A stretch of 64,000 nucleotides of DNA from positions 67,290-131,289 of the forward strand of contig JANRJE010000012.1 of NCBI GenBank assembly GCA_033764135.1. The letters are read 5' to 3'. Made by a program: the position numbers and the translations under genes. The notes below the pieces were generated by a model, which did no database searches, was not told where the DNA came from, and saw only the letters and a program-made list of their open reading frames with translations. Positions 564-63,500 of the stretch are shown here, piece after piece. Positions within the stretch are counted from its first letter, which is position 1. Each line of letters starts with the position of its first letter. This DNA comes from Gemmatimonadales bacterium. GTDB lineage: Bacteria > Gemmatimonadota > Gemmatimonadetes > Gemmatimonadales > GWC2-71-9.

Positions 564-1208
564 ATGCCCAGCTACGCCGTCAAGGAATGCTTTTATACCC
601 TTCAGGGTGAGGGGAAGCACGCCGGCCGCCCGGCGGTCTTTCTGCGCTTTGCTGGTTGCAACCTGTGGAGCGGCCGGGAGGAGGATCGAGCCACGGCTGT
701 GTGCACCTTTTGTGACACCGATTTCGTGGGTACCGACGGCCCCGGGGGGGGGAAATTCCGCTCGGCGGAGGCCCTGGCGCTGCGGGTCGCCGCCACCTGG
801 CCTGCCGATGCCGACCCGCGCGCCAGCCGCTACGTGGTTTGCACCGGCGGCGAGCCGACCCTGCAACTGGACGAGGCGCTGGTCGAGGCACTCCATGCGG
901 AGGGATTCGAGGTGGCGATCGAGACCAACGGCACCCTGCCGGCACCCGCAGGGGTGGACTGGATCTGTGTCAGCCCCAAGGCCGGCGCACCGCTGGTGCA
1001 GACCAGCGGTGATGAGCTCAAGCTGGTCTATCCTCAGCAGGCGGCACTGCCGGAGCGGTTTGGCGATCTCGACTTTTCACACCTGCTGCTGCAGCCAATG
1101 GACGGTCCCAACCGGGACTCAAATACCCGCGCCGCGGTTGCCTATTGTCTCGCCAATCCGCGCTGGAGCATCTCCCTGCAGACGCACAAATTGCTGGGGA
1201 TAGCTTAG
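564..1208 (+). CDS. queE: 7-carboxy-7-deazaguanine synthase QueE (radical SAM)
   Basis: ATG at 564. Translation 'MPSYAVKECFYTLQGEGKHAGRPAVFLRFAGCNLW...CTFCDTDF...VVCTGGEPTL' carries the QueE CxxxCxxC-like radical-SAM cluster. It follows queC. The 387 start in the ORF track reads through the GA/TC palindrome and is an artefact. Confidence 0.9.
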   Translation: MPSYAVKECFYTLQGEGKHAGRPAVFLRFAGCNLWSGREEDRATAVCTFCDTDFVGTDGPGGGKFRSAEALALRVAATWPADADPRASRYVVCTGGEPTLQLDEALVEALHAEGFEVAIETNGTLPAPAGVDWICVSPKAGAPLVQTSGDELKLVYPQQAALPERFGDLDFSHLLLQPMDGPNRDSNTRAAVAYCLANPRWSISLQTHKLLGIA

Positions 1209-1786
1209 TGCAGGGTTACAGCGACCGGATCAACCACGCCTTCACCTTTGCGGCCAAGCACTACGCACCGCGCGCCTCGGGGGCTGGTGCGCTCCAGTAC
1301 CTGGCAGCGCCTGCCAACGTCGCGGTGATCCTGGCTCGTCACGGCGCGGATGAGACGACCATAGTCGCCGGCATTCTCCACCACGTGCTGGAGGCAGCGG
1401 GTCATGACATCGACGACCTCACCCTCAAGATCGGCCAGAAGTTCGGGCCCGCCGTGCTCGGCGTGACCCTCGATGCAGTGACGCCTGCCGCCGCCACCGA
1501 CTGGCGTCACCGCAAGCGGGCAATCCTGACCCAACTGGTGACGATGGAACCACGCGCCCTCGACATCCGCTGCGCCGCCGAGATTCACGAGTGCGGCGGT
1601 GCGATCGCGCTGGTTGAGCGGCTTGGCCCGGAATATCTGGAAGTCCACGAATTCGCCCCCCCCCGGGAAGTGGTGGCCTGGTACAGCGATGCTGCCCAGG
1701 CGTTCGGCCGCCGCGTGGACTGGCCGACCCGGGCAATGCGTATCGAACTGGTCGCTCTGGCGAAACGGTTGGCGGCGCTGGTCTGA
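1208..1786 (+). CDS. HD-domain phosphohydrolase family protein
   Basis: 'AFTFAAKHYAPRASGAGALQYLAAPANVAVILARHGADETTIVAGILHHVLE' is an HD-motif region. A GTG at 1208 abuts the queE stop. The alternative ATG at 1145 would overlap queE by 64 nt, so the start is uncertain. Confidence 0.6.
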   Translation: MQGYSDRINHAFTFAAKHYAPRASGAGALQYLAAPANVAVILARHGADETTIVAGILHHVLEAAGHDIDDLTLKIGQKFGPAVLGVTLDAVTPAAATDWRHRKRAILTQLVTMEPRALDIRCAAEIHECGGAIALVERLGPEYLEVHEFAPPREVVAWYSDAAQAFGRRVDWPTRAMRIELVALAKRLAALV

Positions 1787-1817
1787 CAGCGGCCTGACCC
1801 GGGTATCTTTATTCCCG

Positions 1818-3969: not shown

Positions 3970-5685
3970 TCAGGTCGCCCGGGCCAGTGCCTCGCGCAAG
4001 GTCGCCATTTCGGTCTCAACCAGCTCCACCAGCTCACCCAACAGCCCGGCGTCGAAGGACAACTCCACGCCAGCGGTCCGATAGAGATCAGGAAGCCGGG
4101 TGGTCGCCCCCAAGGCCATGAAGCGCCGGTAGGCAGCCACCGCCGCCACGGGGTCGCGGCGGGCGTTCCGCCACACCTGAAGCGCGCCGATCTGGGCCAA
4201 CCCGTATTCGATGTAGTAGAACGGGTAGAGGAAGATGTGGAGCTGCCGGTACCAGCGCGCCACCCGCTCCGCCGCCAGCCCGCTCCAGTCAACACCGGGC
4301 TCGAAGCGATCCCGCAATCTCAGCCAGGCCGCATCGCGGGCCGCTGGATCGGCGCCCTGCGGATTGGTGTAGATCCATCCCTGGAAGGCATCGATCGAGG
4401 CGATATGGGCCAGCGAGAGGAGCAGGTCCTCGAGGTGTTCCAGCCGGGCGGAAAGCGCGTCGGCTTCGCCGTAAAATCCGACTGGTCGCACCAGATGGGG
4501 CGCGGCCAGCAACTCCATCGACATGCTCGCGAGTTCGGCCGATTCAGCGCCGGGATGACGCTGCCAGATGAAGGGGAGCGCGTGGCTGGCAAAGGCGTGG
4601 AAGCAGTGACCCGCCTCGTGCAGCAGGGTGGTGACATCCTCGGGGACACCGGCGGCGTTCATGAAGACGAACGGCCTGCCCCGGGCATGCAGGGTATCGC
4701 AGTAGCCGCCGGGGGCTTTGCCCGGCCGGGACTCGAGGTCGAGCAACCCTTCGGCCATCATGGTCCGGAATTGCCCGCCGAGCACCGGATCTACGGCCGT
4801 GAAGATCCGGGCCGAGGCCTCCTGGAACTCCGCCACGTCGGCGTAGGGCACCGGAGTCGTGGCGCGCCAGGGGTCAACGGCGGTGTCCCACGGCCGCAGC
4901 GACTTGAGTCCGAGGCGCTCCCGGCGATGCTGAAAGGCCCGCTCGATCGCCGGGCAGACGGTGGCCTCGATGGCGGCATGGAGTCGCTCGCAGTCGGCCG
5001 GGGTGTAGTCAAAACGGTACTTGGCCTGGAAGATGTAGTCGCGGTAATCGCCGAAGCCGGCGTTCCGGGCCATCTCCTGGCGCAACGCAATCAGGCGATC
5101 GAACAGCGGGGAGAGTTCGCCCGCACCTGCCACGTACGGCGCCACCGAGGCGCGCCAGGCCGCCTCGCGCACCGCCCGGTCACCGCTCTTGAGGTAAGGC
5201 GCCAACCGGGGCAGCGGGATCTTCTCCCCCCCCCATTCTGCCGACATCGTGCCGGTGATCTGCTGGTAGCGGGCCGCGAGCCCTTCCGCTTCGGCGACCA
5301 GCGGAACGTTGGCCTCCCGGAAGATTTCGATCGAGGTGCGGAAGCGCCTGAGCGTGGTTGCCAGGTCGGGGCGATCGGTCCCTACCGCCACGAACTTGCG
5401 CGCCAGGGCGACCTCGACTTCGCCGAGCTTGGGAAGGATGTCGGTCGAGAAGCGGAGGTGCGCCGCCTCCTTGGCCGGATCGGTGGTGTCCGACGTGTAG
5501 GCGATCATGGCGAGCGAGGCGGCCTCGGTCACCAGTTCGTCGAGCCGGGACCAATCAGCCAGCCACGACTCGAGGTTGGCCGCGCTGAGCGCCACGCTCT
5601 CCAGATCGCGATAGTAGCGGGCTACTGTGTCCCAGGAAGCATCGGCAAAACCGGCGCTGGTGTCGGGCAGGGGGTTGGTCGGCAT
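3970..5685 (-). CDS. pepF: M3 family oligoendopeptidase F
   Basis: A 572-aa protein. The HEAGHCFH zincin motif with a downstream E and M3B-like flanking sequence were seen directly. ATG at 5685 was chosen. The upstream 127 aa of the ORF are Arg/Gly-rich and of low complexity. Confidence 0.85.
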
Positions 5686-5711: not shown

Positions 5712-6935
5712 TCACGCGACAGGGGTACTCGCCGCCCCCCCCAATTCCGGCCCGGGGACCTGCCTGAAGGTCACCCAGGCCATCAGCAGGACTATCGCTC
5801 CCCCGATCACGAAGGGGGCGTGCACCCCGATCCGCTGGTAGGCGACCGTCCCCAGGATCGGAGCCAACACCCGGGCGATCCCGGCAAAGGTCTGTGCCAC
5901 GCCCATGGTGGTGCCGAGTTCGCTGGCGGGGGTGGCGGCCGAGAGCTGCGATGTGGTGGCCGGAAAGAGCAACGCCGTGCCGATCGGCACCAGCGGGATG
6001 ATCGCCACCAGCACCCAAACGGTTGGGGCAATCGGGTAGAGCAGCAGTCCCAGGGCCAGCGAGAGGCATCCCAGCCGCATCGCCCAGACCTCACCTATCC
6101 GGTCGACTACCGGACCGAGCGCGAGCGATCTCACCACCAGGCCGAGCAGACCGAAATAGACGAAGAAGTATCCGATCGTCTTGGCGGTGATCCCGAACTG
6201 TGACTCGAGCCAGATTGCCAGGATGCTGGTGAGGAGCGAAAAGGCGAGCATGCCGACGCCGTAGATCCAGATCAGCCGCTCCGCCGGTCCACCCGGGTGC
6301 CGCAACGCCATCCACGCCCCGTGCCACACCGGCTTGCGCGGTCGCGGAGTGGCGTCAGGGGTCCGTGACTCTGGCAGGTACTTCCAGGCCGCCAGGACGT
6401 TCAGGAGGCAGAGCGCAGCGGCAATGAACCCTGGCGCCTGCCGCCCCAGCATCGTCGCCAGAGAACCGATGGCCGGGCCGATCATGACGCCGGCGGATGT
6501 CGCCGCCGAGAGCCAGCCCAGGGCGCGCGCCCGGTCGGCGGGGGTGACTGTATCGGATACGTAGGCCTGCGCCACTCCGGTCGTCCCCCCCCCTGCTCCC
6601 TGAATGATGCGGGAGAGGAAGAGCAGCCACACGGTATCGGCCAGCCCGAACACCAGAAACGCCATCGCGGAGGCGAGCAGCCCGATCATCAACGCCGGTC
6701 GCCGACCGTACCGGTCGGAGACGCGTCCCCAGAGCGGCGAGGCGATCAGCTGGGCGATGGAGAACGAGGCGATCATCCAGCCGATCGTCTCGGGGGTGGC
6801 CTCTAGTTCGAGGGCGTAGAACGGCAGGATCGGCAGCACGATCGCGAAGCCGAGCATGTCGATGAAGTTCACGGCGATCAGGACGCTGAGGCGCCGCAGG
6901 TTGTCGCGCTGGGTGGAGGTGACCGGACCACTCAC
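5712..6935 (-). CDS. MFS transporter (drug/H+ antiporter-like)
   Basis: A 12-TM hydropathy pattern was seen. The MFS motif 'GRVSDRYGRRP' sits between TM2 and TM3. GTG start at 6935. Confidence 0.85.
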   Translation of the reverse strand: MSGPVTSTQRDNLRRLSVLIAVNFIDMLGFAIVLPILPFYALELEATPETIGWMIASFSIAQLIASPLWGRVSDRYGRRPALMIGLLASAMAFLVFGLADTVWLLFLSRIIQGAGGGTTGVAQAYVSDTVTPADRARALGWLSAATSAGVMIGPAIGSLATMLGRQAPGFIAAALCLLNVLAAWKYLPESRTPDATPRPRKPVWHGAWMALRHPGGPAERLIWIYGVGMLAFSLLTSILAIWLESQFGITAKTIGYFFVYFGLLGLVVRSLALGPVVDRIGEVWAMRLGCLSLALGLLLYPIAPTVWVLVAIIPLVPIGTALLFPATTSQLSAATPASELGTTMGVAQTFAGIARVLAPILGTVAYQRIGVHAPFVIGGAIVLLMAWVTFRQVPGPELGGAASTPVA

Positions 6936-6984
6936 GCGTGAGTGTCCCCCCCCCGAAACCTTGCTGTTTGCGGCTCTTCAGCAG

Positions 6985-9378
6985 TCAAGAGCCATTCCCA
7001 CCGAGGGCCAGCAGGTTGGCGAACAACTTCCAGGCACCGGGCACCGCGGCGGGCAACTGCCGGAAGAACGCCAGTCCGGTATAGACCACGGTGCCCTTGC
7101 CGAAAGGAGCGATCAGCAGGCTGCCGCGCCGGGCCGGTTCACCCGGATCGGACATTTCGAGCAGCTCCTGCCATGCCGGATCCCAGCTCCGGGCAAAGTA
7201 GAGCCCGCGCTCCTGAATCCAGCCGTCAAAGTCGGCGGCCTGAATGAGGTTGGGCGTCTGCACCACCGGATGGCGCGGCATCAGTTGGGTCACTTGCGCC
7301 TGCTCATCCGTGACCCGGTCGTGCGGTCGGCCGATGGTGAGCGGCAGCGGCGGGAAGCCGCCCTCGACGTACTGATACTGCTGATACTGGGTGATGAGAG
7401 TGCCGCCGGCCCGAGCCCATTCCAGCAGTCGCGGATGGAGGCGCCGGAGCATGTTGTTGATCTCGTAGGCGCGCGGTCCGATCGCCACCACATCGAGCGA
7501 GTCGAGCAGCGCGGCCGGCAGCCGCTCGAGATCGAGCACGGTCACCGGCACCCCGGCCGCGCCCAGCGCCTCGGGAATGGCGTCGGCCGCGCCCCGCACA
7601 TATCCGATGCGACGTCCGTCGGCAAAGCGTACCGGCGCCACCACGACGCTCGAGCCGGCCGGATGAAAGATCAGCCGCTCCCGAATGTGCGGATAGCGCA
7701 CCCGCCGGACCCCGAGTCGCATCGTGTCTGCACCGACAAGGGCCTCGGCCACCAGCTCGACCTCTCCGGCGGTCACGTTTGGGGGGGGGACGACCATGAA
7801 GGTCAGCGTGGCGCGCTCGCCCTGGTTGGCAAAGGCGACCGGCTGCGGATCGCCGCCTCGCCAGCCTGACGGCAGCCGCAGCCGGACCGTCCCGATGGTG
7901 CTGTCGATACCGGCATGCTCGACGGTGACCACGAAGGGACGCTGCGCCAGCCCGCGGCGCCAGAGCAGTCGGCCCGGCGAAATATCTAGCATCACCCGCG
8001 GTACGATGGTGACCGGGTCGCGCATCTCCCCGCGGGCCTGATCGAGCGAGCGGGCGGTCACCTCGTGCCTGACCGAAACCGGCGGAGCGCCGGAGGCCGG
8101 TGAAATACGGAATGACACCTCGACCGGGCGATCGAACGGCTCACCCCAGGTCGCGCTCGGGCCGGACAGCGTGTAGCTCCCGGGCTCGGCGGCGTTCACC
8201 AGGAAATAGGGCTGGCCCGGCCGGGCGGCAGCGGCGACCGCCACGGGAAGAATGCAGCGATGGACAGCCCCCGGCGCCACCAGCACCCGGACGCCACAAT
8301 CGTGCTCACCGGCCGTCTCCCAACCATCCCGGGGAGGCCAGGAGATCGACGCGGCGATGGTATCGGCACCCGTGTTCCAGACCAGGGTCGTGATCGAGAC
8401 CGACTGGCCGGGCGTCACCTCGTCGTCGTCGGTGTAGGCATCGACGATCACCCCCAGTTCGGCCAGCCTGACCCGGCCGAGCCGCTCGGGATCTGGAATT
8501 GGCTGAGCAGGCAGTCCTGCCAGCAGCGCCGTGTCGGCGGCGAGGTCGATCCCGGAGGCGACCGCCTCCAGCACGATGCGGCGGCTGCTCGGCCCCACTT
8601 CCTCCAGTGACCCCATGTCCTGCGAACGGTGCTGCGATCGGGAGCGGGCTGCCAGTTGACGGAACGAATGGCCGGTGACTGGATCGAGCCTCCCGCCCTC
8701 GAAAGTGGCGCCGGGACCGGTCGCGCGATAGTCGCGGTAGAACTTGAGCGGCCGCCAGGGAGCCAATCCCGGCATCGGGAAGCGCGCCGGATCCTGCGCT
8801 GCGTCGAACGCCTCGCGCGCCAGCATCCCCGAGGCCTGATGGTGGCCGTGGCCATCGGCAGGCGTGCCGGACCAGACCGAGACGATCAGGTGGGGACGGT
8901 AGCGCCGGATGATTCGAACGATGTCGGCCAGGATCGAATCGCGGGGCCAGATGTCCAGCGTTTCCTCGGCAGACTTCGAAAAGCCGAAGTCGATCGCGCG
9001 AGTGAAGAACTGGCGGCCGCCATCGACGCGCCTGGCGGCCAGCAATTCCTCGCTCCGCACGATGCCGAGGGCGGCGCCGAGCTCTCCACCGATGAGGTTT
9101 TGCCCGCCTTCCCCACGGGTGAGTGAGAGATAGGCTGTCTCGACACCCATGCCGCGGGAAAGAATGGTGATGAGTTCGGTGTCCTCGTCATCGGGATGGG
9201 CACCGATCACCAGAACGCGGTGCCCATTGGCGAGCAGCAGGCGGTCCTGTTCCAGGCGGGTCAGTCCGCCTGTCCCCGGCCCGCCATCCTGAGCGGAAAG
9301 GGCAGCAGGCAGGAGGAGAGCGAGCACGATGGCAGGCCGTCCGAGGCGACGGAGCAAGAAACTGACTGGAATGATCAT
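6985..9378 (-). CDS. Secreted PIG-L/LmbE-family deacetylase fused to a C-terminal ThuA/GATase1-like domain
   Basis: ATG at 9378 gives the signal peptide 'MIIPVSFLLRRLGRPAIVLALLLPAALSAQ'. 'VLVIGAHPDDEDTELITILS...LSLTRGEGG' is the PIG-L signature. The C-terminus 'GGTLITQYQQYQYVEGGFPPLP...GKGTVVYTGLAF' resembles a ThuA/DUF4159 domain. The first 91 codons of the ORF are Arg-rich read-through. Confidence 0.75.
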   Translation of the reverse strand: MIIPVSFLLRRLGRPAIVLALLLPAALSAQDGGPGTGGLTRLEQDRLLLANGHRVLVIGAHPDDEDTELITILSRGMGVETAYLSLTRGEGGQNLIGGELGAALGIVRSEELLAARRVDGGRQFFTRAIDFGFSKSAEETLDIWPRDSILADIVRIIRRYRPHLIVSVWSGTPADGHGHHQASGMLAREAFDAAQDPARFPMPGLAPWRPLKFYRDYRATGPGATFEGGRLDPVTGHSFRQLAARSRSQHRSQDMGSLEEVGPSSRRIVLEAVASGIDLAADTALLAGLPAQPIPDPERLGRVRLAELGVIVDAYTDDDEVTPGQSVSITTLVWNTGADTIAASISWPPRDGWETAGEHDCGVRVLVAPGAVHRCILPVAVAAAARPGQPYFLVNAAEPGSYTLSGPSATWGEPFDRPVEVSFRISPASGAPPVSVRHEVTARSLDQARGEMRDPVTIVPRVMLDISPGRLLWRRGLAQRPFVVTVEHAGIDSTIGTVRLRLPSGWRGGDPQPVAFANQGERATLTFMVVPPPNVTAGEVELVAEALVGADTMRLGVRRVRYPHIRERLIFHPAGSSVVVAPVRFADGRRIGYVRGAADAIPEALGAAGVPVTVLDLERLPAALLDSLDVVAIGPRAYEINNMLRRLHPRLLEWARAGGTLITQYQQYQYVEGGFPPLPLTIGRPHDRVTDEQAQVTQLMPRHPVVQTPNLIQAADFDGWIQERGLYFARSWDPAWQELLEMSDPGEPARRGSLLIAPFGKGTVVYTGLAFFRQLPAAVPGAWKLFANLLALGGNGS

Positions 9379-10138: not shown

Positions 10139-12910
<2,772 letters not shown>

Positions 12911-12916
<6 letters not shown>

Positions 12917-13049
12917 GTCGTAGGTCGTAGGTCGTAAGTCGTAAGTCGTAGGTCGTAGGTCGTAAAAGGCGAGAAAGGTCGCTTCCGAAAAGGAAGCCGA
13001 CCTTTCAGACCTATGACCTATGACCTACGACCTATGACCCTATGACCTT
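12911..13049. repeat. Composite palindromic element: (GTCGTAG/GTCGTAA)x8, a central hairpin AGGTCGCTTCCGAAAAGGAAGCGACCT, then (CCTATGA/CCTACGA)x5. It sits between the convergent acnA and sigma-factor genes
   Basis: Read directly. The heptamer tandem arms are inverse to each other around a 9-bp-stem hairpin. The element starts at the acnA stop codon. Confidence 0.9.
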
Positions 13050-16977: not shown

Positions 16978-17270
16978 CACTTCCCCCCCCCGTCCTTCTT
17001 GAACATCCGCAGCATCCGGTCGGTGACGGCATAGCCGCCCACCACGTTCATCATCGCGAAGGCGACCGCGCCCACGCCGAAGACGCTGCTGATCCAGCCG
17101 TGACCGCCGCCGGCGATGATCAGGGCGCCCACCACAGTGATCCCGGAGATGGCGTTGGACCCCGACATCAGCGGAGTGTGCAGAGTCGGCGGCACTCGCT
17201 GGATCAGTTCTATGCCGAGAAAGGTCGCGAGCGTGAAGATCGCGACGCCAATGATGATTCCTTCGCTCAT
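16977..17270 (-). CDS. pntAB: NAD(P) transhydrogenase subunit alpha part 2 (small membrane subunit)
   Basis: 'MSEGIIIGVAIFTLATFLGIELIQRVPPTLHTPLMSGSNAISGITVVGALIIAG', about 97 aa. ATG at 17270 overlaps the pntAA stop (ATGA). Confidence 0.9.
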   Translation of the reverse strand: MSEGIIIGVAIFTLATFLGIELIQRVPPTLHTPLMSGSNAISGITVVGALIIAGGGHGWISSVFGVGAVAFAMMNVVGGYAVTDRMLRMFKKDGGGK

Positions 17271-21803: not shown

Positions 21804-21831
21804 CGCTCAGGCACTCAGGGGGGGGCACGCC

Positions 21832-40263: not shown

Positions 40264-41940
<1,677 letters not shown>

Positions 41941-43149: not shown

Positions 43150-43230
43150 CCGGGAACCCGGCCGGGGCATTGGCGCGTATGATGTAGTGGATGTTGGATG
43201 CTGGATGCTGGATGTTGGTGCAATGTGCGG
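43150..43230. repeat. (GGATGTTG/GGATGCTG)x4 tandem element upstream of copC
   Basis: 'gtagtggatgttggatgctggatgctggatgttggtg' was read directly. Confidence 0.8.
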
Positions 43231-43873: not shown

Positions 43874-44422
43874 TTACTTCAGCCGCTCCAGCAGCTCGTA
43901 ACCCACCACCGGCAACAGCAGCTCCACCTCGCCGGCATTGGCGAACTTCAGCACCACCGCCACCGTGTCTCCCGCCACCACGCGCCGGCGCAACTGCTCC
44001 AGCATCAGGTGCATCCCGCCGGGCGCCATCAACAGCGAGTCGCCGGCCGGGATCACCAGCTCCGACAGCATGGTCATTCCCCCCCCCTGTCCTGAGCCGG
44101 ACGAAGGGCCGTCCGCGCTACCGTGCAGCCGCACCGTGCCCGCCGCCTCGCTCCGGACACCCAGCAGGGTGTCGGCAGTGGCACCGAGGTTGACGATCCG
44201 CAAGTAGCCGGGAAGCGGCGCGTTGGTGAACGGTTGCAACCCCCAGGCGGCGCGGAGGCGGATCGAGCCGGCCACGGTTTCGCTGGCGCGGATTCCCTCC
44301 ATCACCGGGTCGGGAGCCGAGCAGGCAAGCGTCACTCCCAGCATCATGGCGGGGAGCGCGATGGCGCCCAGTTTGAGAAGCTTCGGGCCGACCACCACGG
44401 AGACAGATTGGAGTTGAGGCAT
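43874..44422 (-). CDS. PCu(A)C-type (DUF461) periplasmic copper chaperone lipoprotein
   Basis: ATG at 44422 gives 'MPQLQSVSVVVGPKLLKLGAIALPAMMLGVTLACS', a lipobox. The C-terminus '...MLSELVIPAGDSLLMAPGGMHLMLEQL...VVLKFANAGEVEL' has the PCuAC M/H copper motif. Confidence 0.75.
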   Translation of the reverse strand: MPQLQSVSVVVGPKLLKLGAIALPAMMLGVTLACSAPDPVMEGIRASETVAGSIRLRAAWGLQPFTNAPLPGYLRIVNLGATADTLLGVRSEAAGTVRLHGSADGPSSGSGQGGGMTMLSELVIPAGDSLLMAPGGMHLMLEQLRRRVVAGDTVAVVLKFANAGEVELLLPVVGYELLERLK

Positions 44423-49905: not shown

Positions 49906-49913
49906 TCCACGGC

Positions 49914-51869: not shown

Positions 51870-53821
51870 CCCCGCCGCTCCGCTTCTGCCTGGGCCTGCA
51901 CCTGCATCAGCCGGTCGGCAATTTCGACTCGGTCTTCGCCAATCACCTGGCCGAGGTGTACCAACCGCTGCTCCAGCACCTGATGACGGGTGAGGCCTGG
52001 CCAGTGGCGATTCACGTGTCGGGGCCGCTGCTTGACTGGCTGGAAAAGCACGCCACCGAATGGGTCGACTCGCTCGGTGCGCACGTCGACGCCGGCCGGG
52101 TCGAGCTGCTGGTGGCTGGCCATGACGAACCGATCCTCGCGGTGTTGAGTCGCGATGACCGCATCGAACAAGTGGCCCGGTTCCGTGAGCGGCTCCGCTG
52201 CCGATTCGGGGTGGATGCCACCGGGCTCTGGCTCACCGAGCGGGTATGGGAGCCGGGACTCCCCGAGGACTTGGCCGCCGCCGGGGTGCGCTTCGTGCTG
52301 GTCGATGACCGCCATTTCCTGGTCACCGGTATTCCACGCGAGCGACTGCACGCACCATGGACCACCGAATCGGGGGGCCACACCGTGACCGTGATGGCGA
52401 TCGATCAGCGGCTCCGCTATCTGGTGCCATTTCGGGAGCCGTCAGAACTCGCCGAGCACCTGCGACAGGAGCGGGCGGCGGGCCACCAGCTCGCGGTTCT
52501 CGCCGATGATGGTGAGAAATTCGGCGGATGGCCCGGCACCGCGAAGTGGGTATACGCCGACGGCTGGATGGAACGCTTCACCGGTACCATGCGCGAACTG
52601 CGCGACCGTGGCGAGGTGACCTTCTCCCGGTTTGACGATGCCATCGCGGCAGTCCCCTCGGCGGGACTCGCCTACCTGCCGAGTGCCTCGTACCACGAGA
52701 TGGAGGGTTGGTCACTACCCGCCACCCCGGCCCGCGCGCTCGACGCGCTGGAGGAGTCACTGGGTCCGACCGTGATGGCCTCGCCGACCGGAGCGCTGAT
52801 CCGCGGAGGGCATTGGCGACACTTTCTGGCGAAGTATCCCGAGTCCAATCGCCTCCACAAGATCATGCTGGCCACCTCCCGGCTCTGTCGCGAGCGCGGT
52901 GATCCGCCAGCCGCCAGGCGACACGTCGGACGCGCCCAGTGCAACGATGCCTATTGGCACGGCGTCTTCGGCGGGCTCTACCTTCCCTTCCTGAGGGCGG
53001 CGCTCTGGGCCGAGCTTGCGGCCGCCGAACGGCTGCTCCGGACTGATCAGCCGCTTACGCTGGAGCATGGCGATCTCGACGCCGATGGCCACGCCGAAGT
53101 GCGGATCACCTCGTCGTGCTGGGATGTCGTGGTCGCTCCTGCTCGTGGGGGGGGGATAGAGGTGTTGCTCGATCTGGTTCACGGCCGAAACTGGGCCGAT
53201 GTCATGACCAGGCACGAGGAGGGGTATCATCCCGCGGACGACCAGGGCTCGATCGACGCTGTCGAGGAGAATGAACCACATCCTCGCGACGATCAGCCCG
53301 GTGGCATGCCCTCGATTCACGACTTGGAGGGGGCGCTCACCGAGCGTCCGCCTATCGATCAGGAGGTGCGGGCCTGGCTGGTCGACCGGATCGTGGCGCC
53401 GGATGTCACCCGCGACGATTTCGTGGCGGGGACGGTGCCGGTGTTCCGGTCCTGGGCCACCACCCTGCTGGAGCTGCATCACACCGACCTCAGCGACGGT
53501 ACGGCGACGATCGCGCTGGTCGGCGACGGCCTGGCCAAGACGATCACCTTCGGCGAGGACGGCACTCTCACCGTGGCTTGGCGCTGGACCGCTCCGCCGG
53601 ATGGGTGGACCGAGGGGGCATGGTTCACGACTGAGCTCTCCGCTCCAGTGCTGCCGGAAATCGTGGTTACCGGGGCCGAGCGCTGGGAGTACGAGATCGT
53701 CACCATGGCCAAGAGCGAGCAGGGATTCGACCGGACCGTGCAGGGGACGGCGGTGGTGTTGCGCTGGCCCGCAGCGGCGGGTGAGGCGCAGGTGACCGTG
53801 CGCGCTGTGGCGACCAACTGA
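51866..53821 (+). CDS. GH57-family alpha-amylase/4-alpha-glucanotransferase-like protein (with DUF1926-like C-terminus)
   Basis: 'FCLGLHLHQPVGNF' and 'WLTERVWEP'. A third GH57 paralog, coupled to the previous one (ATGA). Confidence 0.7.
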   Translation: MTPPLRFCLGLHLHQPVGNFDSVFANHLAEVYQPLLQHLMTGEAWPVAIHVSGPLLDWLEKHATEWVDSLGAHVDAGRVELLVAGHDEPILAVLSRDDRIEQVARFRERLRCRFGVDATGLWLTERVWEPGLPEDLAAAGVRFVLVDDRHFLVTGIPRERLHAPWTTESGGHTVTVMAIDQRLRYLVPFREPSELAEHLRQERAAGHQLAVLADDGEKFGGWPGTAKWVYADGWMERFTGTMRELRDRGEVTFSRFDDAIAAVPSAGLAYLPSASYHEMEGWSLPATPARALDALEESLGPTVMASPTGALIRGGHWRHFLAKYPESNRLHKIMLATSRLCRERGDPPAARRHVGRAQCNDAYWHGVFGGLYLPFLRAALWAELAAAERLLRTDQPLTLEHGDLDADGHAEVRITSSCWDVVVAPARGGGIEVLLDLVHGRNWADVMTRHEEGYHPADDQGSIDAVEENEPHPRDDQPGGMPSIHDLEGALTERPPIDQEVRAWLVDRIVAPDVTRDDFVAGTVPVFRSWATTLLELHHTDLSDGTATIALVGDGLAKTITFGEDGTLTVAWRWTAPPDGWTEGAWFTTELSAPVLPEIVVTGAERWEYEIVTMAKSEQGFDRTVQGTAVVLRWPAAAGEAQVTVRAVATN

Positions 53822-53918: not shown

Positions 53919-55724
53919 ATGCGCATCACCGCTTTCTCACCGGCACTCCCCTGCCTCCTGGCCGCGACGCTGCTCGCTGGCTGCGGCGGCGGCGACGACT
54001 CGACCGGCTCGACCCCGACAGGCCCGGTTGCCACGGTGACCGTGACCCCCGGATCGCAGCAGTTCGCCTCGCTAGGCGTGACGGCCACCTTCACTGCCCA
54101 GTTGCGCGACGCGGAGGGAGCGGTAATCACCGGCCAATCGGTGGTCTGGAGCCGTCGGGGAACGGGGGCGACTCAGGTAAACGGAAGCGGCGTGGTCACC
54201 GTCGTCGCCAACGGAGTTGACACCATCGTGGCCACCTCCAACGGCCGAACCGGGCAGGCGGTGGTGACCGTTCAGCAAGTCCCGGCGGCGCTTTCACTCA
54301 CCGCCAGCGCCACCACCCTCACTCGTCTCGGCACAACGGCAACGCTGACCGGCGCGCTGCGTGACGCCAACAACCAGCCCGTCACTGGCGGCACCATTGT
54401 CTGGACCTCCGCCAACCCAGCCGCCCTTCCGGTCGACGGCACCGGCAAGGCAACCGCGGCGCGCCCGGGCTCGAGCATCGTGACTGCCACGGCAGGAGAC
54501 GTCAGCGCCACGATCACCTTGAACGTGGTGCTATCCTCACCAGTGGGCGGACCGATTCTGGGGGCGGCGATCGCGTGCAGCGGCGGCGCCGCGGGACCGT
54601 TTCCGTGCCAGGGGGTCAACCTGATGTCCTTCCTCCCGGTATCGGGAGTTGGGGGGGGGGGAGGCATCCAGCTGAATGACATCTGGGGATGGGTGGATCC
54701 CGCAACCTCCAGGGAATACGTGATGGTCGGCCGGAACGACGGTATCGCCTTCGTTGACGTGACCAACCCGCTCAACCCGACTTACCTGGGCTTCCTGCCG
54801 ATCACTCCCGGGGCAGTTGCCAACTTCTGGCACGACATCAAGGTCCACAATGACCATGCCTTCATCGTGGCCGATGGCGCCGGACCGCACGGCATGCAGG
54901 TGTTCGACCTCCGGATTCTCAGGAGCCATGCCGGGGTGCCTCGCGACTTCACGGCCAACACCGTATATCGCCAGATCAACAGCGCCCACAACATCTTCAT
55001 CAACGAGGCGAGCGGCTTCGCCTACATCGTCGGAGCAAGCGGGGGGGGTACGACCTGCGGCAGCGGACTGCACATGGTCGACATCCGCATTCCGACCGCC
55101 CCCAGCTTCGCGGGCTGCTTTGCGGATCCGCTTACGGGGCGTGCCCGCACCGGCTACACCCACGACGTGCAGTGCGTGATCTACTCGGGTCCCGATGCCG
55201 CCCATGCGGGGAGGGAGATCTGCTTCGGAAGCAACGAGACGGCGATCAGCATCGCCGACGTCACCAACAAGAGCGCCCCGGCTGCTCTGAGCCGCGCCAG
55301 CTACCCGCAACTCGGCTATACCCACCAGGGGTGGCTGACGGAAGATCAGCGCCATTTCCTGATCAACGATGAGCTGGACGAATCAGGCCAAGGGGTGACC
55401 GGCACGCGAACGTTGGTATGGGACGTCACCGATCTCGACGACCCGATTCTGGTGACCCAGTTCCTAGGACCGAACCGGGCGATCGATCACAACCATTACA
55501 TCCGCGGCAACCGGATGTTCGCCTCGACCTACCAGTTCGGGCTGCGGGTGATCGATGTCAGCTCGCCTACGGCACCGAGTGCGCTGGGCTTCTTCGACAC
55601 CGCGCCGGAACTTCCCAACACGCCGGGGTTTGGCGGCTCGTGGAGCAACTATCCGTTCTTCCCGAGCGGCAACATCGTAGTAACCAGCGGCGCCGAGGGG
55701 TTGTTCGTGCTGCAGGTTCCCTGA
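53919..55724 (+). CDS. Lipoprotein with N-terminal Big_2-like Ig domains and a C-terminal LVIVD-repeat (choice-of-anchor B) beta-propeller
   Basis: Lipobox 'LLAGCGG'. Repeated 'GxVTVVANGVDTIVATS'-type Ig segments. The LVIVD-like repeats are 'GMQVFDL', 'GLHMVDIR' and 'GLRVIDVS'. Confidence 0.7.
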   Translation: MRITAFSPALPCLLAATLLAGCGGGDDSTGSTPTGPVATVTVTPGSQQFASLGVTATFTAQLRDAEGAVITGQSVVWSRRGTGATQVNGSGVVTVVANGVDTIVATSNGRTGQAVVTVQQVPAALSLTASATTLTRLGTTATLTGALRDANNQPVTGGTIVWTSANPAALPVDGTGKATAARPGSSIVTATAGDVSATITLNVVLSSPVGGPILGAAIACSGGAAGPFPCQGVNLMSFLPVSGVGGGGGIQLNDIWGWVDPATSREYVMVGRNDGIAFVDVTNPLNPTYLGFLPITPGAVANFWHDIKVHNDHAFIVADGAGPHGMQVFDLRILRSHAGVPRDFTANTVYRQINSAHNIFINEASGFAYIVGASGGGTTCGSGLHMVDIRIPTAPSFAGCFADPLTGRARTGYTHDVQCVIYSGPDAAHAGREICFGSNETAISIADVTNKSAPAALSRASYPQLGYTHQGWLTEDQRHFLINDELDESGQGVTGTRTLVWDVTDLDDPILVTQFLGPNRAIDHNHYIRGNRMFASTYQFGLRVIDVSSPTAPSALGFFDTAPELPNTPGFGGSWSNYPFFPSGNIVVTSGAEGLFVLQVP

Positions 55725-58488: not shown

Positions 58489-58516
58489 GACATTGCTCCC
58501 GTTCACCGTTCACCGT
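58489..58516. repeat. (GTTCACC)x4 tandem heptamer, the reverse complement of the GGTGAAC/GGTGAAA unit
   Basis: 'gttcaccgttcaccgttcaccgttcacc' was read directly, upstream of the S15 peptidase gene. Confidence 0.85.
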
Positions 58517-58610
58517 TCACCGTTCACCCTGGCGTGGTAGCGGCGCGAGCAGTAGGCACGACTATATTTTCGCTCCGCCCCGCGCTCCCGCCCCAGCCCA
58601 TGAGACAACC

Positions 58611-60444
58611 ATGCATCGAACCAGCATCGCCACCTCTCTCCTGATCCTGATGGCCGCCCCGCTCACGGCCCAGAATCCCGCCACCGCGCGTGCGGTGTTC
58701 GAGAACGGGATGGCACAGGTGGTACCCGCCTTCAGCGACAGTACCCAATGGATCCGCGAGCGGCTCTGGGTCGAAACCGAATTCGACACCGATGGCGACG
58801 GCCGGCTCGACCGGGTCCATGTCGACGTCACCAGGCCGCGGCAAACCGACGAAGGACTCAAGGTTCCGGTCGTGTACGAGTCGAGCCCCTACTTTGCCGG
58901 CACCTCCGGTCCGCGGGAGCACCTCTGGGACGTGCGCCAGGAGGTCGGCGCGCCTCCCCCCCCCCCGTGCCTCCCAGCCGGAGATCGTATTCCAGCCCGA
59001 CCGGCAGCGGGTCAGCAACTCGCAAATCCGGGACTGGGTACCGCGCGGCTTCGCGGTGGTGCACTCGGAATCACCGGGCACCGGGCTGTCCCAAGGCTGT
59101 CCCACAGTCGGCGGCCGCAACGAGTCGCTGGCGCCCAAGGCGGTGATCGACTGGCTCAACGGGCGCGCGCGCGGCTTCACCACCCGGGACGGCACTGAAC
59201 AGATTCGAGCCACCTGGACGACCGGCAAGGTGGGGATGACGGGGACGTCGTACAACGGCACCCTGCCGCTGGCCGCCGCCACCACCGGTGTCAAGGGACT
59301 CGAGGTGATCATCCCGATCGCGCCGAACACCTCCTACTGGAACTACTATCGCTCGTTCGGACTGGTGCGCCATCCCGGCGGCTGGCTCGGCGAGGATATT
59401 GACTTCCTCTACGACTTCATTCACTCCGGCGATCCGGCGCGGCGCGCCTGGTGCAACACCACCGTCCGCGAGGACGAGATGCACGCCAACATGGACCGCC
59501 AGACCGGCGACTGGAACGACTGGTGGGCCGGCCGCGATTACCTCCCGCAGGTACCGGGGATCCGCGCCGCGGTGCTGATGGCGCATGCCTGGAATGACTG
59601 GAACGTGATGCCCGAGCACAGCGCGCGGATCGTCGAGGCACTCAAGGCCCAGGGAAATCATGTTGCGGTGTACTACCATCAGGGTGGTCATGGCGGCCAG
59701 CCGCCACTGGAGATGATGAATCGCTGGTTCTCGCACTACCTCTACGGCATCGACAACGGGCTCGAGCAGGATCCCAAGAGCTGGATCGTGCGGGAGGGCG
59801 ATGACCGGCTCAAGCCCACCGCCTATCCCGAATGGCCACACCCGGCCGCCAGCGACGTCACCCTGCATCTTGGCTCCGGCGGCAGTGGGCGGGGCTCGCT
59901 GTCGTTGGCACCTTTGTCGGGCCAGGGTTCAGAAAGTCTGGTCGACAATGTCGAGCTGGCCGGTGCCGATCTGGCGAAGGCCGCGAGTTCGGAGCATCGC
60001 CTCATCTATGCCACGGCCGAGCTCACCGAAGCGGTGCATCTCTCGGGAACCGCCCGGATCACGGTGCGGATGGCCTCGAGCAAGCCGGCCGCCAACTTGA
60101 GCGTCTGGCTGGTGGCGCTGCCATGGAACGATGCCGCGCCGCGTCAGCCTAACTTCAGCGTGATCACCCGCGGCTGGGCCGACCTGCAGAACCGGCTCTC
60201 ACTGGTCAAGGGCACTCCGCTGGTCCCGGGGGAGATGGTGGAGATGTCCTTCACCCTGCAACCCGACGATCAGGTGATCCCCGCCGGCAAGCGGATCGGG
60301 TTGATGATCTTCTCCAGCGACCGCGACTTCACCCTATGGCCCGAGCCGGGTACCAAACTGACGCTGGATCTCGACGGTACCACGCTGACCTTGCCCGTGG
60401 TCGGGGGGGGGGAGGCGTTGCGGAAGGCGGTCGGAGGGGGGTGA
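58611..60444 (+). pseudogene. X-Pro dipeptidyl-peptidase / CocE-NonD family (S15) hydrolase gene interrupted by a frameshift at a C11 homopolymer (58956-58966). The N-terminus runs 58611-58965 in one frame and the rest continues in the next frame to 60444
   Basis: The N-terminus 'MHRTSIATSLLILMAAPLTAQ...VPVVYESSPYFAGTSGP...GAPPPPP' (frame 0) is collinear with '...PPPRASQPEIVFQPDRQRVSNSQIRDWVPRGFAVVHSESPGTGLSQG...MTGTSYNGT' (frame 1), the S15 nucleophile context. The two frames meet inside the poly-C run. Confidence 0.75.
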
Positions 60445-60545
60445 ACGGGGGGGACAGGAAAAGGTGAAAGGTGAAAGGTGAAAGGGGGTCCAGTGACAGC
60501 ATCCCTTTCACGTTTCACCTTTCACCTCGGCGCCTGGGTTCACCC
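60445..60545. repeat. Palindromic element (GGTGAAAG)x3-GGG ... CCCTTTCACGTTTCACCTTTCACC between the convergent S15 peptidase and TPR-kinase genes
   Basis: Read directly. An inverted GGTGAAA triplet. Confidence 0.85.
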
Positions 60546-60562
60546 TCGGTATTGCCGGGCTC

Positions 60563-63500
60563 CTACCCTCTCTCCTGCTCCAACCTCGCGATCCGCTCGC
60601 GGATCTCCCGCACCCTGGGCTGCAGCTCGGGATCGGCGTTCTGCCACAGCTCCACGAAGGAGCGGTAGCGCTCGAGCGCCTTGGTGCGATCGCCTTTTTG
60701 TTCGTAGAGCTCACCAAGTTCCTGCAGCAAGCGAGGGTGCCAGGTCGACGCGGTATTGGCGAAGGGATCCGGAATAGCAAGCGAGCGTTCCATCGAGGCG
60801 ATCGCGGAATCGACCTGCCCCATCGCCCGGAAGGCAACACCGTGCAGAGCGGCCGCCGCCTTCGGCGGAGCCGCGTACCGCGCCTCCGCCCGGCGCCCCT
60901 CCGTGATGGCGTCCTGCCAACGGCCCTCGGCGTATGCGAGCAGCGAGGCAGTGCCGATCCGAAATGCTTCGGGGTCCGGATTGAGCCCGGCCTGATCGCG
61001 TTCCCATCCCGCGGCAGCACGGCGAATCAGCGGAGGATTTCGGGTCAGCGCGCCGATGACGCGCAACGTCCCCCACGGGCGCTCGCTCACCGGGATCTCC
61101 TCCATCGGGACCCGCTGCAGTCCGCGCTCGACCACGGCCAGCGCACCGGCGTCGTCGCCGGCGGCCTGTCGGATGAACGCCGAGTCGAGGTAGAACGCGA
61201 GCCGCGACGCACCAGTCGGGCGAGCACGAAGCAGGGCGTCCGCACTTCGCGTGTAGGCCGTGCTGGCATCACGGATCCGCCCCTCCAGAATGGCGATCTC
61301 CCCGAGGCTGTTGTTGGCCCGAAGCGCCTGACGGAGCGTCTTGGGGTCGGTCGCAATGGCACGCGCGATCGAATCCGCCCGGTCCCGATCGCCCTTGCCC
61401 CAGGCCACGTACCAATCGCCCTCCCAGACGTCATTGCTGTTGGGGAAGGTGGCGCGGAACAGCGCCTGCGTGGAATCGAGCGCGGCGGTGTTGCCGTTGT
61501 TGATCTGGGCGATGAGCAGATTGGTGAACGCCCCACCGAACGGTTGTGGGAGCTTGATCACCTTGCGGTACAGCGACTCGGCGCGCTCATACTGGTACAT
61601 CTCCCCCAGCACGACCGCCGCATTGTTGATGGCCGAAGTGCTGAGCGAATCGAGCTCTGCCGCGGCCTGATAGGCGGCCAGTGCCTTGGTGCGGTCCGGC
61701 TCGGGCCCTCGGGTGAAGTAGAACCCTTCGGTCAGGAGCCGCTCCATCTCGGTGAGGCGAGCGCGGTGCCGGTACGCGGTCGAGACCGCGTCGATCATTG
61801 CCTGTCGGTCGCGTCCCTCGTTGTTGATCAGGACGGCCAACTTGCGCCACGCCATGGCGAAAGCAGTGTCGAGCTCGACCGCCTCGCGGAGCAGCGCCAT
61901 CCCGCGCTCCATCTCGCCTTCCTCGTCGGCCAGCCGCATTCCTTCCACGTACTTGCGGAGCGCCGGCAGCGAGGGGGTGGTGACCCGGTCGAGCTCGCTG
62001 CTGGCACGCACCGCCTTGAGCGACTCACCTGCGCGCGCACGCACCTGCTTGGAAATCTTGCCCAATGCCCCGAGAAGGGCGTCGTCGTTGGCGGCTTCCT
62101 CACGGAAGAGGGCGAGGTCCTTGCCATCGAGCGCCGAGACCAGGCGAGCCGAGATGACGTAGCTCTGGCCCAACCGGGTGATGCTGCCGTCGAGCACTGC
62201 CTTGGCACCCTCGCGCGTGGCGATCTGCTGCGAGAGCTCGAACAGGAGCGGCGAGTCCACCGGGCGTTGCATCAGGGTGAGCTGCTCACGGATGTCAGAT
62301 CGTGTGAGGATGCGCAGCGTCGCCGACTGCGCGAGGTCAGTGCGCAACGCCTCGGCCACGGTGGCGCCAAGCGTCGAATCGGAGGGGGGTGAGACGAAGT
62401 CCGCCACCATGACGAGGCCACTCTCGCCGAGCGCGCCCTTGGCCGCCAGCGACGCCATCGGCCCGACGCCGATCGCCCGCATCACCATGAATCCCACCAC
62501 CAGCACCGCAAAGCCGCCGACCGCGAATGCCCCCCCCATCCAGGCGCGCCGCCAGGAAACGTGTGGACTCGCCTTCAGGGCCAGCGTCGCCATCGTCCCC
62601 TGCGGCGACGGTGTGCGATGCGGCGTGGCGGTAAAGGCGCGGTGCGCGGTCCGCTGAATGAAGGCCGTCGCCAGTAGCACCGGCAGGCCGGCCAGCATCA
62701 CCCCGACTGCCCCAGGCAATACCCAGTCCGGCAGCCCGATCGCCTCGCGAGCCGCCCAGGCGGTGATCACCACCGCCAGCGTCGCCCCCGCCCAGAGCGC
62801 CAGCGCCCGCCCCAACCGGATCGGACCACCCTGCAGGATCGCCGGCATTCCGGCTCCGCTGCCGCTCGGGGTGATGGTCTCCAGCAGCTGTACCAATTCG
62901 CCGGCCTGCTGCGGCCGACCGTCGGGATCCTTGGCCAGGCAGCGCATCACCAGCTCCCCGAACGCCGGCGGGCAATCGGGGCGCAACTCGGTGACCGGAC
63001 GCGGCGTCTCGCTCATGTGGGCGGCCAGCACCTTGGTGGGAGTCGACGCCACGAACGGCGGCCGGCCGGTGAGCACCTCGTACGCCATCACGCCGAACGA
63101 GTAGATGTCGGCGCGATGATCCACGGTCGGGTCGCCCAGCGCCTGTTCCGGTGCCATGTAGGCCGGGGTGCCGATCGAGGTGCCGACCTGCGTCAGGGTA
63201 AGATTGCCGGCCGGCTGATCGGTGCGCGCGGCGCTGATCGCCTTGGCGATCCCGAAGTCGGTGACCGTGGCCGTACCGCTGGAGAGGAGCACGTTGTCGG
63301 GCTTGATGTCGCGATGGACGATTCCGCGGGCATGGGCGTAACTGAGGGCTCGGGCCACGTCCCGCAGCACGCTCACCGCCTCGCCTATCCCGATGGCGCC
63401 CCGACCGAGCCGGTGACGGAGCGAATCGCCATCGACGTAAGGCATCGTGAACCAGGGGATGCCGTCCACCTCGCCCGCCGTGAGCACCGGCACCACGTGC

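Follow-up and report, generated by a model that had tools for sequence, protein, structure and literature searches.

A 64-kb stretch of DNA from a metagenome-assembled genome (MAG) of an uncultured Gemmatimonadales bacterium, called the window below, is rich in G or C homopolymer tracts. The tracts repeat a single asymmetric word of 10 bp, 5'-GGGGGGGGGA-3' (TCCCCCCCCC on the opposite strand), either exactly or as one-mismatch neighbours. The word is written G9A when the run reads as G and TC9 in the opposite orientation, and the strand given for a tract is the one on which the run reads as G. A run-length census of the window, which has a GC content of 66.6%, yielded 34 G or C runs with a length of 7 nt or more. 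Of these, 32 reach 8 nt, 24 reach 9 nt and 21 measure exactly 9 nt. The histogram of lengths is bimodal: it falls from 94 runs of 5 nt to 15 of 6 and 2 of 7, and rises again to 8 of 8 and 21 of 9. Only three runs are longer (G10 at 60403-60412, G11 at 54651-54661 and C11 at 58956-58966), and the longest A/T run does not exceed 5 nt. When runs of at least 9 were oriented as G, the following base was A at 22 of the 24 sites in the window, and at 29 of 31 if the sites of the related lineage L001 (see below) were added. Since this A is kept in every codon phase, the unit is the 10-mer GGGGGGGGGA.

The exact word occurs 22 times in the window, compared with an expectation of 0.49 (maximum 2) in dinucleotide-preserving shuffles. 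We also shuffled synonymous codons while holding the proteins and the overall codon usage constant (1000 rounds). This led to an expectation of 0.59 exact words in coding sequences (maximum 4) against 19 observed, and of 4.7 runs of at least 8 (maximum 11) against 28 observed. The frequency of the word is about 1 per 2-3 kb, and that of slip-prone G8-G11 runs about 0.5 per kb. The G8 sites are one-mismatch neighbours of the word, mostly in x-Gly-Gly-Ala peptides (GGG GGG GCA), where G8 rather than G9 is found because the Ala codon blocks the ninth G. The encoded tripeptides were also raised, with 26 Gly-Gly-Gly (about 15 expected) and 11 Pro-Pro-Pro (about 4 expected), as calculated by simple arithmetic on Gly and Pro codon counts. 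The first-pass annotation of this DNA, which had reported an excess of G/C tracts mostly of exactly 9 nt, was therefore correct on this point. It had also remarked that the recurrence of exactly 9 looked non-biological, whereas 9 is the biological length of the run in G9A and not a base-caller ceiling.

For all genic places, we compared the longest G- or C-run reachable by synonymous codon choice (the potential run) with the run present. Potential runs of 6, 7 and 8 nt were fully realised at 5 of 117, 0 of 97 and 6 of 49 sites, respectively. A run of at least 9 was found at 21 of the 39 sites with a potential of at least 9 (54%), and 18 of these 21 runs were exactly 9 nt long. Ten of the 13 realised sites able to hold at least 10 stop at 9, and the unrealised sites with a potential of at least 9 carry runs of just 2-8. 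Occupancy is close to all-or-none with a threshold at 9, and the tracts are a word, not the product of a general taste for G-runs.

Both orientations are used to the same extent. Peptide sites compatible with the word through synonymous codons were occupied in 13 of 41 cases for G9A and 5 of 16 for TC9 (about a third in each orientation). Occupancy by absolute strand was 9 of 30 and 9 of 27, without skew over these 64 kb, whose replication direction is unknown. Tracts reading as G on the sense strand outnumber those reading as C by 3:1 because Gly-Gly dipeptides (178) are commoner than Pro-Pro (69). This equal occupancy by orientation and strand indicates that the signal belongs to the DNA duplex rather than the mRNA, and that it has no strand polarity in the window. 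The 32 runs of at least 8 were also more evenly spaced than random (coefficient of variation 0.69, P = 0.016; smallest gap 361 nt, P = 0.002).

Placement in genes and conservation between strains

Twenty-eight of the 34 tracts are genic, and 6 are intergenic or at gene boundaries. The genic tracts are in phase 0 (pure GGG or CCC codons) in 10 cases, phase 1 in 6 and phase 2 in 12, and the reading frame is preserved in 27 of the 28. Thus, the earlier description of the tracts as mostly frame-preserving stands, but that of nearly all of them as genic runs of GGG or CCC codons needs correction, since only about a third are such codon runs. Their relative positions within genes range from 0.08 to 0.99, without 5' bias. 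The tract-bearing genes are housekeeping genes, such as those for aconitase, PntAB, GlgA and threonine synthase, and others for GH57 enzymes, ABC-F proteins and peptidases.

Codon alignments with orthologs showed that the tracts differ from them by substitution alone, base for base, with zero indels, and that they replace Gly/Pro-rich or G/C-rich codons already present in the orthologs. In aconitase, for instance, E-G-G is encoded by GAG GGG GGG G in the window and by GAA/GAG GGC GGC/GGT in relatives, while the V-P-P-P-L motif reads GTC CCC CCC CCG in the window and GTC CCG CCA CCA in lineage L166. In about half of the cases, a poorly conserved residue has also been changed to Gly or Pro (e.g., W-Q-G-E to W-G-G-E, and K-A-G to K-G-G). 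Base substitutions have introduced the word wherever it is tolerated, both in the encoded proteins and in intergenic DNA.

Three other origins of the tracts were considered. A codon or tRNA preference, or selection for poly-Gly or poly-Pro peptides, was rejected because two thirds of the genic tracts are out of phase, copies are present in intergenic DNA and the A is independent of phase. Insertion footprints (e.g., target-site duplications) were rejected because no tract alters the length relative to orthologs. A role at the mRNA level, as internal Shine-Dalgarno sequence or slippage signal, is unlikely because sense C-runs are as saturated as G-runs.

A strain with 95-97% DNA identity to the window was available from several Joint Genome Institute (JGI) metagenomes, representing at least five samples, and from Logan assemblies of Sequence Read Archive runs. 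It covers 23 of the window tracts, in up to eight independent assemblies. Twenty-one of these tracts were identical in position, length and sequence, and 22 were identical in length, the intergenic ones included. The lone substitution polymorphism was found at 55041-55048, where the window has G8TA and the other strain a perfect G9A (GGG GGG GGG A; L173, 6431-6440); this synonymous change either creates or destroys a word. The lone length difference was at 58956, with C11 in the window and C10 in all eight other assemblies. Gly and Pro third positions differed between the strains at 0 of 46 positions inside tracts, compared with 188 of 1747 outside (Fisher P = 0.012), and only 1 of 197 tract bases differed, compared with 3.6% overall (P = 0.007). 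The tracts are reproducible, length-stable and more conserved than neutral sites.

Distribution among related lineages

The word is lineage-specific: a few related lineages have it, and the other relatives closest to them do not. Long homopolymers were counted in related genomes, as proposed in the first-pass annotation. Lineage L001 (JBDTNH01, a SPAdes Illumina MAG), whose aconitase is 79% identical to that of the window, contained, within 22.8 kb, 11 runs of at least 8, including seven G9A. L166 (GCA_038216165.1; aconitase 86% identical) contained 3 such runs in 13 kb, and L171/L172 (JGI 3300061720; peptidase about 90% identical) 11 in 21.8 kb in addition to an intergenic C29. The density of runs of at least 8 ranged from 0.23 to 0.6 per kb across the window species, L171, L166 and L001, and that of exact words was 0.31-0.40 per kb in L001, L161, L171 and L173, and 0.15 per kb in L166. 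In contrast, L002, L004, L167, L168 and L170, which are equally close (76-81% identity), had 0-1 runs of at least 8 per locus. In 163 other loci (2.30 Mb, mostly Gemmatimonadota), there were 45 runs of at least 8 and 5 exact words (0.002 per kb), i.e., about 150-fold fewer than in the window. Background metagenome loci, obtained with a PIG-L family protein as query (relatives of at most 48% identity), contained 0.037 runs per kb.

The tracts of the three other word-rich lineages are mostly at different sites from those of the window, and sharing drops with divergence. L171 seems to have at least six sites in common with the window, as judged by comparing flanking sequences; L166 shared 2 of 7 window tracts; and, of the 10 tracts that reach 8 nt in the syntenic region of the window, L001 shared 1. 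The word-rich lineages were not monophyletic in a single-gene tree of aconitase. This means that the responsible factor was lost or gained more than once, or that the tree is unreliable at such depth.

An intergenic region of L171 (11869-11956), downstream of its S15 peptidase gene, contains G9, G10 and C29 beside GGTGAGG-type heptamer repeats. This C29 indicates that runs can grow far longer outside coding constraint. A mild excess of G/C runs of 8-11 nt was also observed in three distant Gemmatimonadota metagenome loci (3 in 7.6 kb in L114, 3 in 6.8 kb in L124 and 5 in 17.8 kb in L135). The sharp peak at 9 was absent from these loci and a single exact G9A was found, in L135; they may represent weaker or different versions of the trait.

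Possible origins of the word

In our estimation, the chances are about even that a Gemmatimonadales clade possesses a hitherto undescribed sequence-specific system that acts at the DNA level and recognises the homopolymeric 10-mer G9A. If so, the system might work in uptake, as a receptor, in short-patch repair or gene conversion, or in the recognition of self. The searchable open-access literature yielded no report of an iterated word that is homopolymeric, nor of a poly-G excess in Gemmatimonadota.

Our tentative explanation, to which we give slightly less than an even chance, is a sequence-specific drive at the DNA level that favours word-bearing alleles. It would be comparable with the drive acting on DNA uptake sequences (DUS) and uptake signal sequences (USS), or on the highly iterated palindrome HIP1. 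A sequence-specific protein would act on duplex or incoming DNA, not on mRNA; alleles with the full word would be favoured, and the word would accumulate by molecular drive. Word-bearing DNA might be preferentially taken up and recombined, as for the DUS of Neisseria and the USS of Pasteurellaceae, or else a bias in short-patch or mismatch repair might turn near-words into the word, as proposed for cyanobacterial HIP1. We lean slightly toward the uptake-type version because of the density of the word, its lack of orientation or strand bias, its even spacing, its use of poorly conserved residues and its clade-restricted distribution.

The genomes of H. influenzae and N. meningitidis contain 1,471 and 1,892 copies, respectively, of USS and DUS (PMC2817400). 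These words accumulate by biased DNA uptake and recombination, are found preferentially at residues of low conservation and make the tripeptides that they encode more frequent (PMC2817400, PMC3630211), and DUS form clade-specific dialects (PMC3630211). Like them, G9A is a word in the range of 9-12 bp that is present at about 0.4-1 per kb in both orientations. Many of its copies are genic, in several frames and at poorly conserved residues, with raised frequencies of the encoded tripeptides, and the word is specific to a clade and absent from relatives. The spacing of USS is reportedly also even in genome analyses of H. influenzae. G9A differs from DUS and USS in that it is a homopolymer plus one base, hence slip-prone, in that its one-mismatch copies are rare save for the Ala-forced G8C, and in that 82% of its copies are genic, compared with 35-65% in the known systems. 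Furthermore, no competence, receptor or uptake bias is known for the lineage. Neisseria-type inverted-repeat word pairs, which form terminators, had no counterpart, as no inverted G9...C9 pairs were found in the sequence searched.

HIP1 is an 8-mer and the proposed product of a sequence-specific repair bias (PMC4390886). G9A shares with HIP1 and with alternate highly iterated palindromes a massive excess in coding and non-coding DNA and a lineage-specific occurrence, the word being replaced or lost in some lineages. One-base deviations gather at the ends of the word, as they do for HIP1, which a repair bias has been proposed to create and maintain (PMC4390886). On the other hand, HIP words are palindromic and tied to cognate methyltransferases, whereas G9A is asymmetric and homopolymeric. 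By analogy, G9A may work like a DUS/USS or a HIP-type word; we do not claim that it belongs to either family, because it forms no inverted terminator pairs and does not read as a palindrome. Chi and the strand-polar words KOPS (FtsK-orienting polar sequences) and SRS (SpoIIIE recognition sequences) are likewise short, G-rich, over-represented and placed in coding sequence via codon choice, but they are strongly strand-skewed per replichore, whereas in the 64 kb of the window both strands are equally occupied and the orientation of G9A follows the availability of Gly versus Pro.

Several points weigh against a drive. The window contains housekeeping genes only, and uptake or repair machinery, competence genes and pilin genes were not found in its 64 kb. 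It would be unusual for a homopolymer to serve as recognition sequence, and this would have a frameshift cost. Moreover, 7-mers and internally interrupted words are nearly absent, whereas one-mismatch USS and DUS are common in the known systems. The non-monophyly seen in the aconitase tree requires repeated gain, loss or transfer of the responsible factor, and the lack of strand bias comes from a single window of unknown replication direction. Finally, selection for a function of the word in situ would predict a nearly identical pattern.

According to this last explanation, which we consider unlikely though well worth keeping in mind, the G9·C9 duplex is functional where it is located and each copy is kept by natural selection, not by drive. 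The word could be a site for a nucleoid-associated or chromosome-organising protein, a rigid A-form-prone element, or a 'self' mark for recombination or for a defence nuclease. The spacing more even than random, the conservation of synonymous positions between strains, the sharply fixed length with its terminal A and the absence of orientation bias would all fit with it. However, the sites are mostly unshared with the distant word-rich lineages (1 of 10 with L001, 2 of 7 with L166), so that individual sites seem dispensable. Furthermore, no candidate protein is known, and by sequence alone this selection cannot be separated from a drive.

We think it quite improbable that the tracts result from a lineage-specific mutational bias, i.e., that polymerase dislocation or misalignment, or a repair defect, extends runs by substitution until selection against frameshifts caps them near 9. 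Such a bias would agree with the G- or C-rich character of the orthologs at tract sites, with the patchy distribution among lineages, as expected for a gained or lost polymerase or repair gene, and with the one slippage-type change observed (C11 versus C10). Yet potential runs of 6 and 7 are nearly unfilled (5/117 and 0/97) when 54% are filled at 9 or more, and runs halt at 9 where 10 or more Gs could be encoded. The A that follows the run is the base most easily converted to G, by a transition, and it is nevertheless kept in 29 of 31 cases. The even spacing and the behaviour of the tracts between strains, where they are conserved and not hypermutable, also argue against this explanation.

The first-pass annotation had raised the possibility of contingency loci, i.e., hypermutable homopolymers that switch many genes by slippage and cause phase variation at the population level. 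G/C runs of 9-11 nt are intrinsically slip-prone; the word therefore brings a frameshift risk, and one such event (C11) is visible in the window, where it disrupts a peptidase gene whose frame is kept by a C10 in eight other assemblies. Tracts also stand just 5' of some start codons (6946, 16983, 21818 and 48244), and the contingency loci of Neisseria, Haemophilus, Campylobacter and Bordetella similarly consist of G/C runs of 8-11 nt in, or just 5' of, genes. The stability of the lengths (22 of 23 equal in the 95-97% identical strain, the intergenic ones included), the housekeeping hosts and the lack of 5' bias argue, however, against classical phase-variable loci. The hosts serve core metabolism rather than the cell surface or restriction-modification, only one of the 28 genic tracts is out of frame, the tracts are evenly spread along genes, and both orientations are equally occupied. 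In addition, contingency loci number tens per genome, whereas hundreds to thousands of copies are implied here, with a length fixed at 9, a flanking A and a conservation above neutral. Thus, what stood of this proposal was the slip-prone nature of the runs and the one frameshift, and we consider it very improbable that the tracts as a whole act as switches.

An artefact of sequencing, base-calling, polishing or assembly, of which the first-pass annotation had put forward the sequencing and polishing forms, is hardly credible: although the recurrence of exactly 9 is odd at first sight and C11 versus C10 could be a homopolymer-length error in the MAG, reproducibility across samples and assemblers excludes it, the lengths being identical in JGI (at least five samples) and Logan assemblies, the phenomenon being found at other sites in the SPAdes Illumina MAG L001 and in two more lineages (L166 and L171), the differences from orthologs being substitutions that keep frames and plausible residues, the flanking A being conserved, and the phenomenon being absent from 2.3 Mb of other assemblies with a similar GC content.

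To our knowledge, over-represented genomic words have been described in very few bacterial groups (DUS/USS, HIP1 and Chi), and it is debated whether they originate by drive or by selection. G9A would provide a phylogenetically remote and independent test case: the word is sharply defined, close relatives clearly either have it or lack it, and informative sites number in the hundreds. Its patchy distribution invites phylogenetic profiling for the responsible gene. If the density of the window holds genome-wide, there would be perhaps one to two thousand copies per genome. A slip-prone homopolymer in housekeeping genes also poses a puzzle of fidelity, as it implies either a large frameshift load or a means of stabilising runs. 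If the system proposed above is real, the bacterium would have an unusual capacity for faithful replication of G9-G11 inside essential genes. In practice, annotators and assemblers should leave the tracts uncorrected, and genes that span the longer tracts, such as the S15 peptidase gene, need checking.

Individual tracts and other features of the window

The TC11 run at 58956-58966 (minus strand) divides the S15 X-Pro dipeptidyl-peptidase gene (58611-60444) into two frames by a +1 frameshift. Positions 1-32 of Pfam PF02129 are matched upstream of C11 in one frame, and positions 42-261 downstream of it in another. The NCBI annotation of the split gene consists only of a truncated 461-aa 'CocE/NonD family hydrolase' (MDX2207297.1, from a Gemmatimonadales MAG), to which the open reading frame (ORF) 59056-60444 of the window is identical at all residues save the recoded GTG start. 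In eight other assemblies of the species, the tract is TC10 and in frame (A-PPPP-R), within an intact ORF of 610 aa; the same-species protein P0242 reads ...GAPPPPRASQPEIVF..., i.e., TC10. The L171 equivalent is TC9, with Arg coded by AGG. Nearly all of the 120 S15 homologs listed were encoded by single ORFs of about 600-650 aa, and the closest among them had 604-620 aa. The C11 of the window is thus a +1 slip, which reflects a real inactivation specific to this strain or else a wrong homopolymer length in the MAG. The advice of the first-pass annotation to treat gene models spanning tracts with caution was justified for this gene. A G10A on the plus strand (60403-60412; V-GGG-E) is found close to the 3' end of the same gene, and this G10 was present in all eight other assemblies. 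An intergenic G7A (60447-60453, plus strand), a marginal member of the series, starts 2 nt past the peptidase stop codon.

Eighteen of the 24 tract positions listed in the first-pass annotation were exact, and six were off by 1-10 nt: 6936-6944 is in fact 6946-6954, 7791-7799 is 7781-7789, the starts 29189, 44078 and 48246 become 29188, 44079 and 48244, and 60406-60414 is the G10 at 60403-60412. Eight 8-mers (5735, 11413, 18280, 21818, 35927, 45455, 55041 and 62530) and two 7-mers (40257 and 60447) were missing from that list.

At the beginning of the window, a G9A on the plus strand (744-752) is in phase 0 of a radical-SAM (QueE-like) gene (564-1208, +; P-GGG-K). It is followed by a G9 on the minus strand, with C instead of A (1656-1664), which is a sense C-run in phase 1 of an HD_4 gene (1208-1786, +; A-PP-R). 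Both are unchanged in strain L161. The peptidase M3 gene (3970-5685, -) carries a sense G9A on the minus strand (5226-5234), coding for W-GG-E where orthologs have W-Q-G-E; it is common to L166 and unchanged in L161-163. The gene for a major facilitator superfamily (MFS) transporter (5712-6935, -) has two tracts, both on the minus strand: a G8 followed by C in its C-terminal tail (5735-5742; L-GG-A), and a G9A in phase 0 that encodes the conserved A-GGG-T motif (6585-6593). G9A is also found at the latter site in L001 and L166, compared with GGC/GGG/GGC in tract-free relatives. An intergenic G9A (6946-6954, minus strand) lies upstream, the GTG start of the MFS gene being 10 nt downstream of it. 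In the PIG-L family gene (6985-9378, -), a G9A on the plus strand (7781-7789) forms a sense C-run at a poorly conserved position (V-PPP-N).

The aconitase gene (10139-12916, +) contains a G8CA one-mismatch variant on the plus strand at the conserved E-G-G-A (11413-11420; GAG GGG GGG GCA) and a G9A on the minus strand (12187-12195; sense TC9) that encodes V-PPP-L in a variable loop. In the pnt genes, all tracts are on the minus strand. One G9A is within pntB (15580-16977, -) at 16129-16137 (A-GGG-K), and another, at 16983-16991, ends the PNTB_4TM gene (16977-17270, -; D-GGG-K-stop), 5 nt before the pntB ATG; pntA (AlaDh_PNT; 17270-18370, -) has a G8A variant at 18280-18287 (K-GG-D, compared with K-A-G in orthologs). 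A G9A on the minus strand (19620-19628; sense TC9, H-PPP-T) is in the PALP gene (19503-20789, +). An intergenic G8CA variant on the plus strand (21818-21825) is found 6 nt before the ATG (21832) of a PMT-like gene, and a G9A on the same strand (24209-24217; P-GGG-R) in a BcsB-like gene (23337/23460-25394, +). Two unknown genes follow: the one that ends at 28561 (+) has a G9 then CA on the minus strand (28242-28250; sense C9, A-PP-R), and the other (28600-29379, +) a G9A on the plus strand (29188-29196; D-GGG-I).

Further tracts are a G9A on the minus strand (31031-31039; sense TC9, S-PP-R) in an ABC-F gene (29410-31311, +), a G8CA variant on the minus strand (35927-35934; Q-GG-A) in an unknown gene (35304-36563, -), and an intergenic G9A on the plus strand (38726-38734) directly 3' of the TGA stop of an SPFH/Band-7 gene (37454-38725). 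A C7 (40257-40263, minus strand), also a marginal member, is directly 5' of the ATG (40264) of an ABC-F gene, and a G9A on the minus strand (44079-44087; Q-GGG-M) is in a PCuAC gene (43874-44398, -).

A compact glycogen/alpha-glucan cluster (44580-53821) encodes a DUF3417 phosphorylase, GlgA, a GH57 branching enzyme, a GH57/DUF3536 protein and a GH57 amylase/4-alpha-glucanotransferase. Its neighbouring genes share overlapping start and stop codons, and it contains seven words or variants. The alpha-glucan phosphorylase-like gene (44580-46751, +) has a G8CA variant on the plus strand (45455-45462; Q-GG-A). Two plus-strand G9A are in glgA (46748-48256, +), one at 47262-47270 (W-GG-D) and the other formed by its last codons (48244-48252; L-GGG-stop). 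The latter adjoins the ATG (48253) of the branching-enzyme gene, and the site is also present in L171. The GH57/DUF3536 gene (49914-51869, +) contains a G9A on the minus strand (50455-50463; sense TC9, S-PP-H) and one on the plus strand (51488-51496; E-GGG-S); L171 appears to have G9A at the second site too, as judged from unaligned flanks compared by eye. The last gene (51866-53821, +) has a plus-strand G9A at 53147-53155 (R-GGG-I). In L171, this last GH57 gene is missing from the cluster and an amidohydrolase gene is found in its place.

Downstream of the cluster, a Big/LVIVD gene (53919-55724, +) has two tracts on the plus strand. The first is a G11A that includes the word (54651-54661), in frame, which is also G11 in the other strain and G9A in L171; the second is the G8TA variant (GGG GGG GGT) at 55041-55048. 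The last tract of the window is a G8CA variant on the minus strand (62530-62537; M-GG-A) in a Ser/Thr kinase gene (60563-63718, -), the identical variant being present in the other strain and in L171. The words at 6946-6954, 16983-16991, 21818-21825 and 48244-48252, as well as those at 38726-38734 and 40257-40263, are 0-10 nt 5' of starts, on the sense strand and at the Shine-Dalgarno position, or directly past stops. G-rich ribosome-binding regions may be easy targets for conversion to the word.

Ordinary chromosomal genes are present throughout the window. They include queuosine genes and genes for peptidase M3, the MFS transporter, aconitase, a sigma-70 factor and PntAB, threonine-pathway genes, a cellulose/glycosyltransferase cluster, genes for two ABC-F proteins, the GH57/GlgA glycogen cluster, and genes for peptidases and the Ser/Thr kinase. 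The best matches of the aconitase were Gemmatimonadota/Gemmatimonadales MAGs. The GC skew is flat across the window, and an Rfam scan of the window gave no matches.

Units of 7-8 nt repeated in tandem, usually as a pair of arrays inverted relative to each other, were observed in intergenic DNA at 464-546, 12909-13048, 31300-31339, 36698-36788, 38844-38885, 40009-40240, 41938-41978, 43188-43218, 43675-43867, 58499-58528, 60460-60527 and 63768-63823. They are predicted to form very long hairpins with nearly perfect pairing (-44 to -88 kcal/mol, z -8 to -13). Their units are unrelated to the word. Since such hairpins are also present in tract-free relatives, a connection with the tracts was rejected. 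They look like an unusual class of terminators or of REP-like (repetitive extragenic palindromic) elements in Gemmatimonadota, independent of the G9 word. The unit differs from one hairpin to the next (e.g., AAAGAGAG, GGTCGTA, GGATGTT and GGTGAAA), and syntenic spots in related genomes, tract-free ones included, contain hairpins with other units. Just past the aconitase stop codon, for example, the unit is AACGAGA in L001, GAGTCGT in L167 and GAGTCCT in L170.

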